From positions 4,529,414-4,593,413 of the forward strand of contig CP070695.1 in NCBI GenBank assembly GCA_020353515.1: DNA of 64,000 nucleotides, read 5' to 3'. Below are positions 19,816 through 39,529 of the stretch, piece by piece (the first letter of the stretch is position 1; each line of letters opens with the position of its first letter). The position numbers and the translations under genes are program-made. The DNA is from Candidatus Heimdallarchaeota archaeon (GTDB lineage Archaea; Asgardarchaeota; Heimdallarchaeia; Hodarchaeales; Hodarchaeaceae). The notes under the pieces are model-generated. The model was given only the letters and a program-made list of their open reading frames with translations, was not told where the DNA came from and did no database searches.

Positions 19816-20418
19816 ATGATTAAAAAGGATGAGATTGAAATATCCAGTTACAAAGCAGGTTCAGGGATTAAGATCATGAAACAGAAATTAGTTCTTAAAT
19901 TAGTACTACTTGGCGATCCAGGAGTTGGAAAAACGTCATTAATTTCACAATTCGTCCATGCACGCTTTCGACATTCATATCAACTCACAGTTGGATTAGA
20001 TATTTCTTCAAAACAGGTCAAGTTGGATGATGGACGAACAGTAACACTCTCAATAAATGATATTGGCGGACAAGCGCGGTTTGCTGCAATACGACATATG
20101 TTCTTCAAAGGGGCCCATCTTGCAATGTTTGTTTATGATGTGACTAGAGCTGAATCTTTGGAGAATATCAAAGATCCCTGGTACAAAGAATTAATGCAGT
20201 TTTGTGGTCAGCCTGGAAAAACAAAAGCTGCTATCCAAACAATCTTAGTTGGTAATAAAACTGATCTTGAAGATTATCGGATGGTTGAGGAAGATGAAGG
20301 GGGCCAGCTTGCCAATGAAATTAAAGCAATAGGACATATTTCCGCCTCCGCTAAAGAGAATATTCAGGTCGATAATGCTTTTAAGACTCTAGCTCAAAGT
20401 TTCTTTGATGAGATATAG
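19816..20418 (+). CDS. Rab-like small GTPase (Ras superfamily) with no prenylation tail
   Basis: G1 GDPGVGKT, G2 LTVGLD, G3 DIGGQ, RFAAIRHMFFKGA, YDVT, G4 NKTD, G5 SAK; the start may be MKQK at 19876. Confidence 0.93.
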   Translation: MIKKDEIEISSYKAGSGIKIMKQKLVLKLVLLGDPGVGKTSLISQFVHARFRHSYQLTVGLDISSKQVKLDDGRTVTLSINDIGGQARFAAIRHMFFKGAHLAMFVYDVTRAESLENIKDPWYKELMQFCGQPGKTKAAIQTILVGNKTDLEDYRMVEEDEGGQLANEIKAIGHISASAKENIQVDNAFKTLAQSFFDEI

Positions 20419-29792: not shown

Positions 29793-30626
29793 ATGAGTAA
29801 TCAGAGTGTACATGCCTACATTCCTTCACCTGATGGTGAATACATTCCAATTAAATTCACCTCTCCTGAAAAAGATTTAAAGAAATCTGAGGTCATTATT
29901 TTCCTAGATGAAGAATCACGCCAAATTTTCATTTGGACGGGATCAGAATCTTCAGTTCGGAAGAGATTTATCTCCAGCCAAATTGCACGTCAAATGAGAC
30001 TCGAAAGAGGTATGACACACAGAATATCGACTGAAGATCAGGGGAATGAAACATCGAAGTTTTGGGAATTTATGAATGGGCTTAATGATCGAGGAATAAC
30101 CGCTAGTACCCTTTTAGAAGTTTCACCTCCTACAATTTCTAGTGATTTGCCTGAACCTGAACCAAGAGAAATAGTCACTCATCCCGCGACATTAAAGAAA
30201 GTTGCTTCAGTAAAGGCAGTAACTCCAGCTAAGACTAAGGTTGCACCTCCTAAACCAGAAACAAAACCACACCCAGCGCCAATTGAACCAGTTGAGTATG
30301 AAGTGGAATACTTTTGTGAAGAAGTTACCACTGCGATACCTGAAGCGAAAGCTAAGATAATCTTTGAGGCTACGAATAAAGATCTAATCCTTACTACTCT
30401 TCATATTTCAACAGCAGCTACTGAGGGTAGGATAGGACTTTATTCTATTCCAAAGAAAGGAAAAACCGTATCTGTAAAATCAACTAAAGCAATTTTTGCT
30501 ATATATTTACAGGAAGGTTCACCGATTTTAGAACTAGATGACCTATACATCCCTATCCCCTCAGATGATTCAATTTATTTCACCTGTCCCGCTAATACAT
30601 TTATTAGTATTAATTTAGAGTCATAA
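29793..30626 (+). CDS. Single gelsolin-domain protein with a Pro-rich linker and an unknown C-terminal domain
   Basis: L...EVIIFLD..QIFIWTG..SS..KRF....A....QGNET..FW matches the gelsolin repeat consensus. Confidence 0.85.
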   Translation: MSNQSVHAYIPSPDGEYIPIKFTSPEKDLKKSEVIIFLDEESRQIFIWTGSESSVRKRFISSQIARQMRLERGMTHRISTEDQGNETSKFWEFMNGLNDRGITASTLLEVSPPTISSDLPEPEPREIVTHPATLKKVASVKAVTPAKTKVAPPKPETKPHPAPIEPVEYEVEYFCEEVTTAIPEAKAKIIFEATNKDLILTTLHISTAATEGRIGLYSIPKKGKTVSVKSTKAIFAIYLQEGSPILELDDLYIPIPSDDSIYFTCPANTFISINLES

Positions 30627-33126: not shown

Positions 33127-33510
33127 GTGCCTTTCATCAATATTTCATTTGCAGAAGCAAACCAAACCTTACAAGATCCATCAACTATTATTCAATTATT
33201 AAAAGAGAAGAAAATTAACCCCAAAGAGGCTAGTCTTTTGGAAAAATTAGGCCTTTATTCCAGAAATCGTCTTCCAGAAGTACTTGATGAAATCAGGACA
33301 CTTTGCGATGAAGCTTTTGGAGTAAAAGCTGAGGATGCCTTCCAAAGATTGTCTCGATTCGTAAAAAGCCAAAATAAGCGTGTATCTTGGGTTATTTTCT
33401 CAAGAACATTTCAATCTATTCAGTACGATGACCGAAATCCCCTAGAAGACTACAATCCTCGAGTATCAGAGGTCTTGACAATTACCTCAAAATTTAAAGT
33501 CATCAAATGA
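33127..33510 (+). CDS. Hypothetical protein (127 aa), first gene of a three-gene cluster
   Basis: GAGG upstream and a 6-nt gap to the next gene. Confidence 0.7.
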   Translation: MPFINISFAEANQTLQDPSTIIQLLKEKKINPKEASLLEKLGLYSRNRLPEVLDEIRTLCDEAFGVKAEDAFQRLSRFVKSQNKRVSWVIFSRTFQSIQYDDRNPLEDYNPRVSEVLTITSKFKVIK

Positions 33511-33516
33511 GCAAAA

Positions 33517-35289
33517 GTGACACGAATGCAGTCATCAGATTGTGAAAAATTAGTGGAAGAAGCAACAGAGGCTTCTAAACATTCTCTTGATGTATCAGCT
33601 AAGATTTTTGAAGATGCAGCGAAGTGCTTTGATAAACTAGGAGATCGAAGAAAAGCTGGTCAATACCTCACATTAGCAGGTGATTTTTTCCTTGATTTGG
33701 ACAATAAAGAGAAAGCAGCCACTTGTTATGGAAAAGCAATTATGAGACATTTGATGATTGATGACATAGATACTGCTGAAATTCTACTTGAGAAAGGAAA
33801 AGAATATGGATTTTCCTCATCAACACATCAATATAGAATCGCATTAGATGCACTAGAAAGGCAAACTACCACAAAAATTGAAGAAGAGATATCTGAGGAA
33901 CAGGTACCTGAAATTGAAGTGCTCCCAGAGATTGATATTCTACCAATCGAAGAAGAAGAGGACCTAATCCCCCTCAAATCTGACTTATTTTCTCTTGATG
34001 AAGATGTTCAGCCAAAAAAACAAGAGTTCATTATACCTCAGCTTGAGAAAGAACAATCATCTACCTTAAGTTCATATGCAGTACTTGCTGCGGTATCCCA
34101 AGCAACCAGAGAAAAATCAACACAAGAAATAAAAACGAACGCATTTGTTAAGAATACATCTGGGGAATCACAATTCTTAGAACCTCAATTTGAACTGAGC
34201 CCTATCCAACCTATTGAAACATTACCAGTTTTAAGTGGTAAATCCACAATTGATCATTCAACTGAAGTAGAAACAAAGGATGTGGAGGTTCCAACTGAAT
34301 CGTTAGATGAATCAGATACCCTTGATTTAGATTATGCTGCAAAGGCTGAAATTACAAATGAATTTGAAGATGAATTAGTTGATATTGAAATTATTAACAC
34401 CATCCCTTTCAATTTTGAAGTAGTTAAAATTAAAGCAGATTTTAAATTGGATGAAAAAAAGCCAACGAACGAGGGGTTGGTTTTCACTTGGAAGAAAGAT
34501 AGGATTGAACCAGGGGAGAAGATTTCTGTCGAATATATTCTAAGAAAGCGTGTAGAACGTTCAATAGTCTTACGAAAAGAAAATAAAGTTTCCGTAGTCA
34601 ATTTATTTCATTCAGTCCAACAGCAGATGCAAGCAAATTTAGATTTTGTGAACACATCTGGAAAGGTTTTTTATGAAATTTTGATCGAGGATGTCATCCC
34701 CCCAGAACTAATCGTTAATGAAACAAAAACAAATAAGAAAATTAAACCCGTAACGATACCTACACATGATAGTACTCTTTATCGATGGATCTTCAGTAGC
34801 CTCCCCCCAGGTGACAACTTCTCTGTACTTTATGAATTCCGAGAAAAACCTCTAACTAGGCATTATAAAGATGAAATTGATTGCACAGATGGCTTAGTTC
34901 GAATTGAAAAGATTTCACAACCTATAGTAGACTCAAATCAATATGAATATATGTGGTTATTTTTTGTGGAAAAACCAATACCTGATAATATTACTATCAT
35001 TGATCGAATTCCTTCAGATTTTAAACTCTTACTAGTAGATCCTCCCCATTTAAATCCTTCTATTAAGAAAGAAAAGACTCATCAAGAACTAACTTGGCGA
35101 TTAAGTCCTGAGGAAGTTCCTACAGCAATAATTTTAAGAATAAGTGGAGAAGAATCCTTTACTCCATTAGCACCATCCATTGAGTTCGCTCGTGGAGATG
35201 AAATCCAACTTATTGAACGATCTACGTCATCAGAGAAAAAATTAGTTGATATTCGCCGATTAAGTCAGAGTCAGAAGGAGTCGAAGTAG
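33517..35289 (+). CDS. Alpha-SNAP-like helical N-terminus plus acidic linker plus three Ig-like (DUF11/mu-homology-like) repeats
   Basis: AAKCFDKLGD..KAGQY..AGDFF..AATCY; three I-x-[ND]-x-IP...[FL]xW repeats; no signal peptide. Confidence 0.65.
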   Translation: MTRMQSSDCEKLVEEATEASKHSLDVSAKIFEDAAKCFDKLGDRRKAGQYLTLAGDFFLDLDNKEKAATCYGKAIMRHLMIDDIDTAEILLEKGKEYGFSSSTHQYRIALDALERQTTTKIEEEISEEQVPEIEVLPEIDILPIEEEEDLIPLKSDLFSLDEDVQPKKQEFIIPQLEKEQSSTLSSYAVLAAVSQATREKSTQEIKTNAFVKNTSGESQFLEPQFELSPIQPIETLPVLSGKSTIDHSTEVETKDVEVPTESLDESDTLDLDYAAKAEITNEFEDELVDIEIINTIPFNFEVVKIKADFKLDEKKPTNEGLVFTWKKDRIEPGEKISVEYILRKRVERSIVLRKENKVSVVNLFHSVQQQMQANLDFVNTSGKVFYEILIEDVIPPELIVNETKTNKKIKPVTIPTHDSTLYRWIFSSLPPGDNFSVLYEFREKPLTRHYKDEIDCTDGLVRIEKISQPIVDSNQYEYMWLFFVEKPIPDNITIIDRIPSDFKLLLVDPPHLNPSIKKEKTHQELTWRLSPEEVPTAIILRISGEESFTPLAPSIEFARGDEIQLIERSTSSEKKLVDIRRLSQSQKESK

Positions 35290-35310
35290 CCTTCATACTA
35301 CCAAGAATAT

Positions 35311-37242
35311 ATGGAATTACCAGGAATGGATATTACTATTCTAGCAGTACATTGGGATGATATTTCAGGCCCATCTATCATCTCATTATTCCCGCATACG
35401 ACTTTAAACGATCCTGAATCCGTTGCACTGCAGATTTATCTCGCATCAGTGACAGTTTTTGGCCAACATGGACATTCACAAAGAACTGAATTTTCTGTCC
35501 CTTTGTTAAGCCTAGGTCAAGATATCACAGCCCGTGTGGCATTTGATTCATGGCCTGATACATCCTTACGGGGAAAAGAGCGCCCTTTCTTTCTAGCTTT
35601 TATAACAGATCAGACTACAGGAGAAACACTCAAATCTCACCTTAATAATTTTTTTTTTGAATATCTTGATAGTTTGAAGAATGAGAAGTCGAATTTTTCA
35701 GCACAACAAGTCTGGGAATCCGTAATCACATCATTTCAAGCTCCAAAGGATAAAGAATTTGATGCCATTTCTTTTGAAGTCGATTCGGAATATGCTATCC
35801 CACGAGCCCTCACAGATCTTGAAACAGCTAAAGATGCTTGGGAGAACCTCAAAGATAGAAGTCAATTATGGACCGCTTTACGTGTTGCAAACCGATTAGA
35901 GAATGTTGATGATAAAGGAGCAGGATCTGCTTTCTCATTAGTTGGGAAAATCCTCTTAACGGGACACAGTTATCAAGAGGCAGGAGAAGCTTTTGAAAAA
36001 GCGACAAATTGTTACAATCGAGTTCGATTATTTGAGGAAGCCGGAGAAACCTCATATTTAGCTGGTAAATGTGCGTATTATTTAGAAGAATATGAAAAGG
36101 CAATTGATCTTATTCAAGCAGCAACCTTATGGATAAAAGATCCTGCTTTAGTCGCGTCACTAAATTATGACATGGGTATTGTACTCCATGAACAATCACG
36201 TTATGAAGAAGCAAATGTATGTTTTGAAAAGGCAGTTCGATTAGCAACAGATTTAGATACACAAACCGCAGCAGAATACTCTTCAACTTTTGCTAGTAGA
36301 TTGATGTATCAAGCAGAAAAAGAAAAAGAAGAAAATCCTGCATATGCTCTTGGACTAATCCGAAGATCAGCTGATCAAAGAGAAGAGGCCTCACGATTGC
36401 TACAACTGACTGAAGGAGGCTCTCAAACCGCAGCGACATCACTGATATTAGCCGTGAGTGCATATTTTTCACTCGGAAACAAAGAAATGGGGGTTAACTT
36501 ATTAGAGAAAGCAATAGATCTATTTATTGACGCGGAAGATTATATATCTGCAAGCAGGTCGTTATACGATGGTGCTCGGATGATTAGAGATGAAAAAAGA
36601 TCTTATGAGCTACTTTCCCGAGCACTAATTTTGCTGCAAGAAAAAGAAGCTAATTTTCAAGAGGATCGTTTAGTGGGATTAATTTCTTTTGAGAAGGGTA
36701 AAATAGAGGAAAAAATGAACCAGCTCTCAAACGCTCTTAACTCATTCGAGAATGCTATCATTCATTTAACTAAATCGGGCGCTCCCGAGCTAGATTTAAT
36801 ACCTATCCATATTCAATACGCTAATACCCTATTTAAGCTTGAAGATTTTGAAAAAGCTGCAGAATTCTTTCTCACAGGTACTAAAGGATTATCTTCACTT
36901 CTTCCAACAGAAACAGTTGTTGATCAAAAGAAAAAGGCACTCATGAATGCTTTAATTAGTTTACGACGAGCTAGTGCCGCTTATCATAACGCAGCGACCA
37001 TAATTTTAAAAGAAAAGGATGAAACCCGTGCAATTACGATGTTTGCTCATTCTGTTTCTCTTCTAATAGAATGGGTTGAAAACAATCCCAAAGATAATCA
37101 AAACGAAGTAAGAAAAGTGATTGGAACCCGTATCTCGCGATTATCGGTTAAAAAGGATCTTCTTTTGTTAGCGGAATCAAAATTCAAGATTGACTCAATG
37201 ATTGAAAGTTTGGATATGGCTCTTCAAACTTTTCGGACGTAA
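35311..37242 (+). CDS. Longin/uDENN-like N-terminal domain plus alpha-SNAP/TPR solenoid
   Basis: ILAVHWDDISGPSIISLFP and D..LRG..RPFFLAFI (uDENN/longin pattern), followed by about 450 aa of TPR-like repeats. Confidence 0.75.
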   Translation: MELPGMDITILAVHWDDISGPSIISLFPHTTLNDPESVALQIYLASVTVFGQHGHSQRTEFSVPLLSLGQDITARVAFDSWPDTSLRGKERPFFLAFITDQTTGETLKSHLNNFFFEYLDSLKNEKSNFSAQQVWESVITSFQAPKDKEFDAISFEVDSEYAIPRALTDLETAKDAWENLKDRSQLWTALRVANRLENVDDKGAGSAFSLVGKILLTGHSYQEAGEAFEKATNCYNRVRLFEEAGETSYLAGKCAYYLEEYEKAIDLIQAATLWIKDPALVASLNYDMGIVLHEQSRYEEANVCFEKAVRLATDLDTQTAAEYSSTFASRLMYQAEKEKEENPAYALGLIRRSADQREEASRLLQLTEGGSQTAATSLILAVSAYFSLGNKEMGVNLLEKAIDLFIDAEDYISASRSLYDGARMIRDEKRSYELLSRALILLQEKEANFQEDRLVGLISFEKGKIEEKMNQLSNALNSFENAIIHLTKSGAPELDLIPIHIQYANTLFKLEDFEKAAEFFLTGTKGLSSLLPTETVVDQKKKALMNALISLRRASAAYHNAATIILKEKDETRAITMFAHSVSLLIEWVENNPKDNQNEVRKVIGTRISRLSVKKDLLLLAESKFKIDSMIESLDMALQTFRT

Positions 37243-37267: not shown

Positions 37268-39529
37268 CTAAATAAACTTCGGTTTTAACTGATCAATGAG
37301 TTTTTCTTTCTTCATCTGCAGCTTTTCTTTTCGTTCATTCATACGATTGATGATTTCAGAATGTTTACTTTCAGAAATCTCATTATTGAGAAACTTTTCA
37401 TCAGCTGCATTTATAGAGTCATCAATGCCGGAGATAGCTTCTTCTATCTCTAGCAATTGAGGATCTTTTTGTGGATCATCAATGAGATCGAAAGTTGCGC
37501 TATCTGGGCTTGGTTCTTCAACTTTCTTGTCGAGCTCCTTGAGATCCTCATCTGATTTGTGAAATAATTTGACAACTTTTTCCCTATCGTAATGCTTGTT
37601 TTTACGCTTTGTTCCATGTCGTGGGGGTTTTGGGGGCCTTGGGGGCGTTGGGGACTTTAAGGATTTTAAACCTTTGATTGCCTTTAAACCTCTTCTAGGA
37701 GTATCAGTTAAAACTTCGTCCTCCCCTACAATGAATCCTAATTTCTCTCCTCCTGATTCTGCAAATAACAGCTGAGGATCTTCTTTAAAAAGAGTTTCAA
37801 CCCGCTTTGTAAATAATTGATTGAAGTTATGTTGATCCTGTATAATCCTTGATCTCATTTCTTCTAAATCAAGAGGATCCCCTTCTTGAATATCTATTCC
37901 AAAAACCCGTACTTTTTCTCCTTGAGGTGTTTCTATAACAGAAACAAATGGAGTTTGTACAAATGAATAATCAGGGGTTTCTAAAACTGTTACAAATCCA
38001 CCAAGGATTTGTACATATTGTCCAACACCTTTCATTTCAATTACTTTAACAATTCCCCCCAAAATATGAACCAATTCTAACATATTAGATTCAAAAACGT
38101 ATATTCCAGGTAATCTTACCAAAGAATAATCTTCAGTTTCTGTAATTGAATACTTAGATGGAGTGGCATCAACTGAGGAAAAAATACCTTGCGGCCCACG
38201 CCATGCTTTCAGGTCATTTATTGCTCTTTTACTCTTTTCAAAAATATCGGTTACAGCTTCAATCCCGACATTTTTCAGTTCTGTCTCTGTTAATTCGCTC
38301 ATATCTTTAGGGGTCAACTGAAGCTTTACTTTATCCCATTCTTCAGGTGGTAGCCAGATAGTGGTGGTGCCATCAATTTCTTGTTTTTTCGACGTATCCT
38401 GATCTTCGGTTTTTGTCTCTACTTCTGACTTTCCCATAAGAACTAAAGCTGTACCCTTCTCTGTGACTGTTGGAACTGCAATTGTCCCTTTAGCTGCAGT
38501 TAAGGATGTTTTCCCCTTACTTACAAGTTTCATATGGTCAGTTGGAATAGTATACACTCGTTCTGGTTTTTTAAACTCTGTGGCTTGAATTGTTTGAGCG
38601 AAACTTTGAACACGATTGCCAAGCTGACTTGTTGGGTTTATTGCTTGACCTGTGACAGCGTTTGCTAAAGACCCAAATTTATTTTCCTGCGTTTTTGGGG
38701 CAAAAATTAGAATAAAACCTATCAATAAGCTTAAGAAAGAGGTGAATTGAAAGATTTGAAGATATGCTGAACCAACCCATTGGAGTAAAAGAAAAATTAG
38801 AAAACAAAAGCCGCCAAATAGAAAAACATCACGCAATCTTTCCGTTCGGGATCTTAAGGCTTGATATTGATTAAACAAGTCAGTAGCACTAACTGCAGAA
38901 ACTGAGACTTGTTTGGGAGATACTGGAAGCAGACTACCAAGCAAGTACAAAAAGAATGAAATAATGAGCAAAGCATTAAAATCTATAAAAGGAAAATAGA
39001 CAGGATTGAATAGGTAAATTCCCTTAAAAACGTAAATTATCAAAGATACTGTCCAACAAGCTTGAAGGATCTTTTGGATATAGAACCAGTAACCCATTTT
39101 CAGAGTTTGAAAGGAAAAACTGTTCCACAAAATTACAAGAGGGATAATAAGGCTTACAATTGTTCTTTCGAGGTCACCATATGTAAATCCATTCAGATCA
39201 GGAACAACATAATTTGGAGTAGAAATTAAAATCAGAACAAAGAAAATAAAAATCTTTCCCGCACGATTCATTGGAGATGCTGCGGATTTATCATCCTCTA
39301 TGAGGTATTTATACACAGGTATGATTATAAATAGGGCGATTACACCAGTGAATAATGTCGCACGAAATATCACATTTTGTGGGAATAGAAATGCTGAAAG
39401 CCACCAGAATACCAACAGAAGCAAAAAGACTAAATCAAGAAAAGTTCTGGGTTTGAAAAATTGTTCAGTCTGGTCTAAAGCAAATCCTTCTAAAGACCGA
39501 TATTTTGGCAATTGAAATTGTTCCGTCAC
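37268..39529 (-). CDS. Polytopic membrane protein (about 8 TM) with a large cytoplasmic region containing beta-hairpin repeats and a coiled-coil/SHOCT-like tail
   Basis: Hydrophobic N-terminal 280 aa; repeats such as LVHILGGIVKVIE and YVQILGGFVTVLE; PPRPPKPPR; C-terminal EISESKHSEI. Confidence 0.7.
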   Translation of the reverse strand: MTEQFQLPKYRSLEGFALDQTEQFFKPRTFLDLVFLLLLVFWWLSAFLFPQNVIFRATLFTGVIALFIIIPVYKYLIEDDKSAASPMNRAGKIFIFFVLILISTPNYVVPDLNGFTYGDLERTIVSLIIPLVILWNSFSFQTLKMGYWFYIQKILQACWTVSLIIYVFKGIYLFNPVYFPFIDFNALLIISFFLYLLGSLLPVSPKQVSVSAVSATDLFNQYQALRSRTERLRDVFLFGGFCFLIFLLLQWVGSAYLQIFQFTSFLSLLIGFILIFAPKTQENKFGSLANAVTGQAINPTSQLGNRVQSFAQTIQATEFKKPERVYTIPTDHMKLVSKGKTSLTAAKGTIAVPTVTEKGTALVLMGKSEVETKTEDQDTSKKQEIDGTTTIWLPPEEWDKVKLQLTPKDMSELTETELKNVGIEAVTDIFEKSKRAINDLKAWRGPQGIFSSVDATPSKYSITETEDYSLVRLPGIYVFESNMLELVHILGGIVKVIEMKGVGQYVQILGGFVTVLETPDYSFVQTPFVSVIETPQGEKVRVFGIDIQEGDPLDLEEMRSRIIQDQHNFNQLFTKRVETLFKEDPQLLFAESGGEKLGFIVGEDEVLTDTPRRGLKAIKGLKSLKSPTPPRPPKPPRHGTKRKNKHYDREKVVKLFHKSDEDLKELDKKVEEPSPDSATFDLIDDPQKDPQLLEIEEAISGIDDSINAADEKFLNNEISESKHSEIINRMNERKEKLQMKKEKLIDQLKPKFI

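Follow-up and report, generated by a model that had tools for sequence, protein, structure and literature searches.

A conserved archaeal gene cluster joins a longin-TPR protein bearing GAP-type motifs to a predicted two-protein beta-sandwich module

Layout of the three-gene cluster

We use a combination of profile searches, structure prediction and genome comparison to study a cluster of three genes in a 64,000-nucleotide stretch of an Asgard archaeal genome (G000:C1:4529414-4593413, the window; coordinates below are positions within it unless a contig is named). The genome is a single contig of 4.94 Mb with roughly 35% GC. Close homologues of the window's proteins bear the names Hodarchaeales, Heimdallarchaeota or Candidatus Hodarchaeum mangrovi, and by sequence we assign the source organism to the Hodarchaeales (Heimdallarchaeia). 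The three open reading frames are co-oriented on the + strand and encode 127, 590 and 643 amino acids (aa). Gene 1 (33127..33510, P0001), a small subunit, starts with GTG and has an invariant MPFIN N-terminus; gene 2 (33517..35289, P0002) follows; gene 3 (35311..37242, P0003), which starts with ATG, encodes a longin domain followed by tetratricopeptide repeats (TPR).

As called, the genes are separated by 6 nt (genes 1 and 2) and 21 nt (genes 2 and 3), the spacings recorded in a first-pass annotation made from the letters of this DNA. The start of gene 2 is ambiguous, with GTG 33517 giving the 590-residue product and ATG 33526 (M4) giving 587 residues. We consider the ATG more likely, because the window's own database record (P0004, 587 aa) and the ortholog consensus both begin at this methionine; the first gap would then be 15 nt rather than 6. 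None of the three proteins has a transmembrane helix or a signal-like N-terminus, as had been noted before: the Kyte-Doolittle mean never exceeds 1.1 in any 19-residue window.

Gene 3 begins with a longin domain that carries GAP-type motifs

Family models say little about the N-terminal domain of gene 3. Neither Pfam nor NCBIfam assigns it a family, and Pfam is empty for residues 1-180. We therefore describe it by structure. An AlphaFold2 (AF2) model of residues 1-185 (m558406b167e6), made from an alignment of orthologs and paralogs (A1), has a mean predicted local distance difference test (pLDDT) of 80. Its secondary structure according to DSSP (E8-16, E20-27, H35-50, E59-64, E72-82, E90-100, H101-128, H131-143) runs beta-beta-alpha-beta-beta-beta-alpha-alpha, which is the longin topology with its five-stranded antiparallel sheet. 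Solved longins head both searches made with this model, Foldseek and VIA-align, the latter an independent fold search over 48,161 PDB representatives. In VIA-align the top structure is a Lokiarchaeota longin (8yqg_B, Z 13.9, root-mean-square deviation 3.4 A, 135 residues aligned at 16% identity), followed by FLCN (6nzd_H, Z 10.7), Lst4 (10.4), NPRL2 (8fw5_B, 10.1), FNIP2 (9.8) and C9orf72 (7o2w_A, 9.5). Lower in the list stand VAMP7 (9.0), TRAPP (8.6) and the sigma/mu/zeta-type adaptor longins (6.7-8.1), and the roadblock/longin platforms MglB, LAMTOR, TRAPP and Mon1-Ccz1 score between 7 and 9. Foldseek ranks chain A of the GATOR1-KICSTOR entry 9v0j first (E 5e-5), with PAS/LOV folds among its weaker matches. 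At the level of sequence, a profile of the family (A2) run against all PDB sequences returns a sole meaningful match, to residues 30-159 of human C9orf72 (E 0.0014), in which the C9orf72 segment 'WDNILGP' aligns with the family's 'WDevsGP'. From the model, the two fold searches and this profile match we place a longin domain at residues 7-145 (35329..35745, +), and we are close to certain of the fold. The first-pass annotation had called the region longin/uDENN from a sequence signature; the signature and the longin half of that name hold, and uDENN we drop, since no DENN module follows.

The motif W15-D16...G20-P21...D83..R87-G88..R91.F93 is present and conserved. Its WD and GP pairs (35353..35373, +) close strand 1 and occupy the loop leading into strand 2, respectively, G20-P21 lying between strands E8-16 and E20-27, and R87-G88 (35569..35574, +), a candidate arginine finger, lies in the loop between strands 4 and 5. 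Across 132 representatives of the longin family, W15 is kept in 131, G20 in all 132, P21 in 127 and R87 in 113; R87 is also kept in every one of the 19 longin-solenoid proteins. The WD and GP of gene 3 align with W33-D34 and G38-P39 of C9orf72 (residue numbers from PMC12290439). According to that paper, a GP motif before strand 2 combined with an arginine finger is specific to the longins SMCR8, C9orf72, FLCN and NPRL2 of GTPase-activating proteins (GAPs); the GP motif is absent there from FNIP2, NPRL3, adaptins, TRAPP and DENND proteins, and is present in a class of Heimdallarchaeial longins. By analogy with the same account, R87 is a candidate equivalent of the arginine fingers of FLCN, NPRL2 and SMCR8. 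The domain is also structurally nearer to the GAP longins (Z 9.5-10.7) than to other eukaryotic longins (6.7-9.0). We judge with good confidence that it belongs to the GAP-type class (FLCN/NPRL2/SMCR8/C9orf72).

The remainder of gene 3, residues 164-643 (35800..37239, +), is a TPR solenoid. Pfam gives TPR_2 at 8e-16, TPR_12 at 2e-13 and SNAP at 4.9e-7, with the strong TPR matches at 215-520. The SNAP match reaches 29.9 bits (cut-off 25), covers model positions 49-152 only and lies beneath stronger generic TPR matches. Because the best PDB sequence matches are designed or consensus TPRs, we read this part as generic TPR; an alpha-SNAP identity for the TPR parts was considered and set aside for the same reason. 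The Pfam models DENN, Folliculin, NPR2 and C9orf72 find nothing at E up to 10 in residues 1-180 or at E up to 1 in the whole protein.

Genes 1 and 2 are predicted to form a beta-sandwich module

The product of gene 2 has three parts, which had been described earlier as SNAP-like helices, a long acidic hinge and beta-sandwich repeats. The hinge and the sandwiches are recovered here, and the SNAP likeness of the helices appears only below cut-off. Residues 1-115 (33517..33861, +) form a TPR-like helical head that is weakly alpha-SNAP-like: Pfam SNAP scores 16.5-20.9 bits against a cut-off of 25, the SNAP/TPR match lies at 23-87, and the comparison with alpha-SNAP in the PDB gives E 0.006 over 52 residues. 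The head aligns with a separate family of partner proteins of ~200 aa ('small') found in class-level relatives, with an hhalign probability of 93.7% (E 1.9e-7), and by this profile comparison the two are homologous. Residues 116-272 (33862..34332, +) are an acidic low-complexity linker, presumably disordered. The stretch 116-290 contains 25% D+E against 7% K+R, and the linker varies in length among relatives, up to ~620 aa in the contig L064. Residues 273-574 (34333..35238, +) form three tandem beta-sandwiches (~273-354, 357-444 and 448-574) in an AF2 model of residues 255-590 (m274a64ad71eb, 37 sequences), which has a pLDDT of 82 and ends in a helix; the first 14 residues of this fragment fall below 50. 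Each sandwich opens with a recurring motif, hhDxIPxxh.

What kind of sandwich is this? The question bears on the proposal, made in the first-pass annotation, that the cluster may encode a proto-adaptor like those of AP and COPI coats, since the head, acidic linker and sandwiches of gene 2 resemble the trunk, hinge and ear of such subunits. In fold searches no solved structure stands out (best Z 7.6; none in Foldseek at E up to 0.001). Mu-homology domains are among the matches (SGIP1 Z 7.5, mu4 7.1, delta-COP 6.5-6.7, mu3A 6.4), on the third sandwich only and over ~87-114 residues, and their scores tie with those of topoisomerase VI, hemolysin, CBM2, pilin and A2M domains (all Z below 8). Foldseek gives the mu-homology matches a probability of 0.92-0.93, with delta-COP at E 0.02-0.025. 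We did not adopt a mu-homology or appendage identity, the scores being tied with generic sandwiches. The ESM Atlas neighbours are DUF11/CARDB-type repeat proteins, at template modelling (TM) scores of 0.27-0.32 by query. Pfam, DUF11 included, finds nothing on residues 280-590 at E up to 10, and NCBIfam is likewise empty on the C-terminal part. The sandwiches thus look DUF11/CARDB-like in their modelled structure, with the recurring motif at the start of each as a further likeness, and differ from that group in having a low TM score and no match to the DUF11 model. Most DUF11 proteins are surface proteins, unlike the cytoplasmic product of gene 2.

Gene 1 has no match in Pfam, NCBIfam, the PDB or the ESM Atlas, and its profile search of the PDB gives noise only (E 0.09 or worse). 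From these searches it is a small subunit of no known family, with relatives confined to its own. It has a conserved C-terminal beta hairpin (residues 101-126, 33427..33504, +), and Y100, D101, P105, L106, Y109, P111 and V116 are conserved. A complex prediction of gene 1 with the head and the C-terminal part of gene 2 reaches an ipSAE interface score of 0.68, compared with 0.00 for the best of three controls. In calibration, 58 of 80 solved complexes and 2 of 110 mismatched pairs attained this mark, a calibration that is only rough here because the job had three chains and alignments made for this analysis. At least 92% of contacts are common to the runs, the pLDDT of gene 1, the partner, is at least 74, and the contacts have an expected error of 0.9-1.4 A. 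In the predicted complex, gene 1 residues 116-121 are inserted between strands 193-199 and 314-318 of the fragment (residues 447-453 and 568-572 of P0002); when gene 2 is modelled alone, the matching edge of sandwich 3 is the least confident part of the model (pLDDT 53-59). Gene 1 is thus predicted to complete the third sandwich of gene 2 by donating a beta-strand, and on this prediction the two proteins probably bind each other. It is between these two products that the model supplies the contact between subunits expected of the complex first proposed.

Conservation of the cluster

Of 21 genomes of the genus, 20 have genes 1, 2 and 3 side by side, with identities of 49-87% and with the genes abutting or overlapping in several. 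Contiguity at this level proves little by itself, the whole neighbourhood being syntenic within the genus. We therefore look further out. Gene 1 orthologs stand directly upstream of gene 2 in the same 20 genomes, in two order-level genomes and in the contigs L064, L068 and L071. One of the order-level genomes (G022) has the order Arf-gene 1-gene 2-gene 3, its gene 2 being divided between contigs C83 and C585. We also traced seven longin-solenoid representatives, each from a separate 50%-identity cluster, to their contigs: the full trio is present in three (L064, with a gene 2 of 1067 aa, L068 and L071), a gene-2-like gene lies directly upstream of the longin-solenoid gene in L070, and two of the seven longin-solenoid genes are alone or on a short contig. 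L068 shares the synteny of the window, and L064 and L071 have other gene contexts. A gene-2-like gene also adjoins a longin-solenoid gene in G171. The cluster is conserved well beyond chance, and the trio recurs outside the genus in differing gene contexts.

The last of the seven traced contigs, the metagenomic L065 (L065:1-9073, GCA_048941265.1), carries three gene-2-like genes and, after them, a tandem pair of longin-solenoid paralogs. WD, GP and Arg are all kept in the 690-aa paralog; the 682-aa paralog has G-S and is without the Arg. By analogy, this matches the catalytic/non-catalytic longin pairs of eukaryotes, the 682-aa protein being like FNIP and NPRL3.

The two halves of the cluster differ in their distribution. 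Among 151 sampled genomes of the phylum, the beta-sandwich family of gene 2 is present in 28 of the 28 that belong to the class (G000 included), usually as a 'big' protein of 520-540 aa made of an uncharacterised N-domain of ~180 aa, a linker and three sandwiches (loci L021:3876-6042, L022:4846-7022, L023:2398-4688 and 13 more). This protein is usually preceded by the ~200-aa partner that aligns with the gene 2 head, a partner seen in two families; neither the 'big' nor the 'small' protein has a Pfam match. The longin family is patchy, occurring in 34 of the 151 genomes, and its longin-TPR form is confined to the window's own family. Because the sandwich family is class-wide while the longin-TPR form is so confined, genes 1 and 2 appear, from their sequence distribution, to be an older class-wide module that the longin-TPR gene joined in this lineage. 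As possible sources of gene 1 we considered the N-domain of the 'big' protein and the C-terminal tail of the 'small' one; despite a final strand of similar appearance, hhalign gives a probability of 0.2% for each, and we rejected them.

The longin family is linked to Arf-type GTPases

An exhaustive profile search for the gene 3 longin family yields 347 clusters at E up to 0.001. Among the 147 members scanned for other domains, 69 have a receiver (REC) domain, 24 have TPR and five have an Arf domain; REC-longin proteins measure ~295 aa and longin-TPR proteins 600-700 aa. The Arf architectures are Arf-longin-PAS (P0200), Arf-longin-PAS-histidine kinase (P0216), REC-Arf-longin (P0178, P0195) and longin-Arf (P0147), and histidine kinase-REC-longin proteins also occur (P0130, P0119). 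We read the Arf fusions as Rosetta-stone evidence, at the level of domain architecture, that the longin domain would work with Arf-family GTPases and under phospho-relay control. In P0200 and P0216 a small-GTPase switch is wired directly into two-component signalling within single polypeptides.

A GTPase also appears beside the cluster itself. In G022, an Arf gene (Pfam Arf 3e-44; L020:311-994, G022:C83) precedes the gene 1 ortholog by 98 nt on the same strand. Within the window's genome, where 19 Arf-like loci occur, it is matched best, at 52% identity, by G000:C1:2624312-2624911, far from the window. Because the fusions and the sole operon-linked GTPase are all Arf-type, partners of this type are to be expected rather than Ras/Rab-type ones. 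The first-pass annotation had also proposed action on small GTPases, which the Arf fusions make plausible, and had named the GTPase at 19816 as a possible partner; this one (19816-20418) we rejected, as it is Ras/Rab-type and lies 13 kb off behind unrelated genes, with nothing tying it to the operon. Small GTPases are numerous in Asgard genomes, as are longin and roadblock proteins, and regulators are hard to match to GTPases because the two rarely share an operon (PMC10933270).

REC-longin response regulators, the family's commonest architecture, are encoded by paired tandem genes next to large uncharacterised ones (L015:2752-4623, L024:1168-3042), and one is encoded in the window's own genome (G000:C1:4481634-4482515), which holds two further members of the longin family in all, a stand-alone longin of 204 aa and a protein of 293 aa. 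In the REC-longin proteins of L016 and L027 the Arg-Gly is substituted (FESLS).

A candidate GTPase regulator and its alternatives

Drawing these observations together, we propose that the three genes form an operon for a soluble cytoplasmic complex that would regulate a small GTPase. In this proposal gene 3 would be the active subunit: its longin would dock on the nucleotide pocket of an Arf/Rag-like GTPase and stimulate GTP hydrolysis, probably as a longin dimer, with the C-terminal TPR solenoid as a scaffold. Gene 1 would donate its strand to the third sandwich of gene 2, which comprises a TPR head, an acidic tether and three sandwiches, and the two would make up an accessory module with a possible role in targeting or linking the complex. 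We hold a longin-based complex regulating an Arf/Rag-like GTPase, probably as a GAP, to have about an even chance of being correct. Actual GAP activity of gene 3, argued from its sequence motifs and its model, we place slightly below that, and whether gene 3 joins genes 1 and 2 in one complex could go either way.

Several observations weigh against this proposal. A wider longin profile (132 sequences) run against the PDB lets C9orf72 drop to E 0.17 and does not reach FLCN, NPRL2 or SMCR8. Neither a DENN nor an NPRL2 C-terminal module follows the longin in gene 3, residues 164-643 being TPR repeats. The window contains no second longin gene in or beside the operon and, to our knowledge, all known longin GAPs work as longin heterodimers. 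Longin domains in general are more often guanine nucleotide exchange factors (GEFs) or passive platforms. In this genome the operon neither contains nor adjoins a GTPase gene, and the Arf neighbour is seen in G022 only. As for the accessory module, G023, outside the genus, keeps genes 1 and 2 together with gene 3 elsewhere, and in most of the class gene-2-like proteins occur where no longin-TPR gene is present, so that genes 1 and 2 can work without gene 3.

The foremost alternative keeps the GTPase and changes what is done to it: gene 3 would act as a GEF, or as a platform or effector specific to one nucleotide state, in the manner of Mon1-Ccz1, TRAPP, DENN, MglB or Ragulator. Roadblock/longin dimers act mainly as GEFs (PMC10933270), MglB, LAMTOR, TRAPP and Mon1-Ccz1 are themselves in the structural list given above, and the longin of the Arf-longin fusions could be a dimerisation platform, like the C-terminal domain of Rag proteins. 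Set against this are the GP motif and the Arg, nearly invariant here and reported as specific to GAP longins (PMC12290439), and the higher structural rank of GAP longins over GEF longins. We consider this alternative unlikely. A further alternative does away with the GTPase: the cluster would encode a TPR/beta-sandwich scaffold, and the longin would be a signal-output or ligand-sensing module acting on another target. The many REC-longin and some histidine kinase-REC-longin proteins, the PAS/LOV folds among the Foldseek matches and the class-wide occurrence of genes 1 and 2 without gene 3 fit such a scaffold. The Arf fusions, the Arf neighbour in G022 and the conserved catalytic-type motifs point to GTPases instead, and the REC fusions fit phospho-control of a GTPase regulator, as proposed by Liu et al. 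(10.1101/2020.10.19.343400), which leaves a GTPase-free scaffold with a small share of our belief. Finally, an AP/COPI-like adaptor or coat, in which a sigma/mu-like longin would be combined with a solenoid trunk, an acidic hinge and either a mu-homology domain or an Ig-like appendage, is very improbable and not supported, because the longin is of a different class (it has the GP motif, which PMC12290439 reports as missing from adaptins, and matches sigma/mu/zeta longins less well), there is no adaptin trunk (the gene 2 head is only ~115 aa of TPR, the gene 3 TPR is generic, and Pfam finds no adaptin or HEAT family in either), the sandwiches are indistinguishable from generic prokaryotic Ig-like repeats, and no membrane-binding element is present.

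Comparison with known systems

Our preferred proposal, the GTPase-regulating longin complex, has its nearest published counterparts in the NPRL2-like and FLCN-SMCR8-type longins of Asgard archaea (10.1101/2020.10.19.343400; PMC12290439, Traffic 2025). These share the fold, the GP motif, the Arg, the occurrence in Heimdallarchaeia and the two-component fusions; Liu et al. note that the 'NPRL2-like longin' domains of Asgard archaea are found in fusion with domains of two-component signalling. The longin class and the two-component fusions are therefore already published. The main text of these reports does not mention a longin-TPR fusion, a three-gene operon, a sandwich partner or a strand donor of 127 aa, and in the searchable literature we found no description of the fusion, the operon or the partner proteins.

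Among eukaryotic systems, the closest are C9orf72-SMCR8(-WDR41), FLCN-FNIP and GATOR1 (NPRL2-NPRL3-DEPDC5), which supply the best eukaryotic structures, share the WD, GP and Arg motifs and are tied to Arf/Rag-type GTPases, a link that is made through fusions here. Gene 3 differs from them in having TPR in place of a DENN or NPRL2 C-terminal module and in having one longin that bears both a WD, as in C9orf72, and an Arg, as in SMCR8. The operon holds one longin gene, which would allow a homodimer at best. The TPR, the acidic linker, the DUF11-like sandwiches and the small strand donor are without counterpart in these complexes. The closest solved structure belongs to the Lokiarchaeota Roadblock-Longin protein (PDB 8yqg), which is archaeal and a longin dimer, and which joins roadblock to longin where gene 3 joins longin to TPR. 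With AP and COPI subunits (sigma/mu/zeta/delta longins; trunk, hinge and appendage) the cluster shares the longin superfold and the gene 2 layout.

The catalytic-type motifs seen in the family of folliculin, GATOR1 and C9orf72-SMCR8 are present in gene 3, which makes it a testable candidate GTPase regulator, and the fusions together with the one operon-linked Arf give a short list of candidate Arf-like partners. If the GAP activity is real, the longin-GAP mechanism of nutrient and lysosome signalling would predate eukaryotes, and the cluster would show what form such a complex had before DENN modules existed. A bolder version, which we regard as unlikely, is that the three genes specify an entire archaeal longin-GAP holo-complex, homodimeric and acting on an Arf/Rag-like GTPase, with one longin combining the C9orf72-like WD with the SMCR8/FLCN/NPRL2-like GP and Arg, and with TPR scaffolds tethering it to the beta-sandwich module. 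Such a complex would be a living model of the ancestor of the C9orf72-SMCR8-WDR41, folliculin and GATOR1 complexes as it stood before the longin was duplicated and DENN was gained.

Neighbouring genes

Downstream, a convergent gene (37268-39529, -) encodes a multi-pass membrane protein of 753 aa. Five or more hydrophobic segments lie within the first ~250 residues of this protein, and a stretch rich in K and P and a coiled-coil tail follow (weak CdvA-like match, E 0.067). The gene is placed tail-to-tail with gene 3 in L068 and across the genus, an arrangement that L064 and L071 do not have. Upstream, 2.5 kb before the trio, lies a gelsolin-like gene (29793-30626, +; Pfam Gelsolin E 0.002), and between the two are genes for HMG-CoA reductase and a NUDIX protein.

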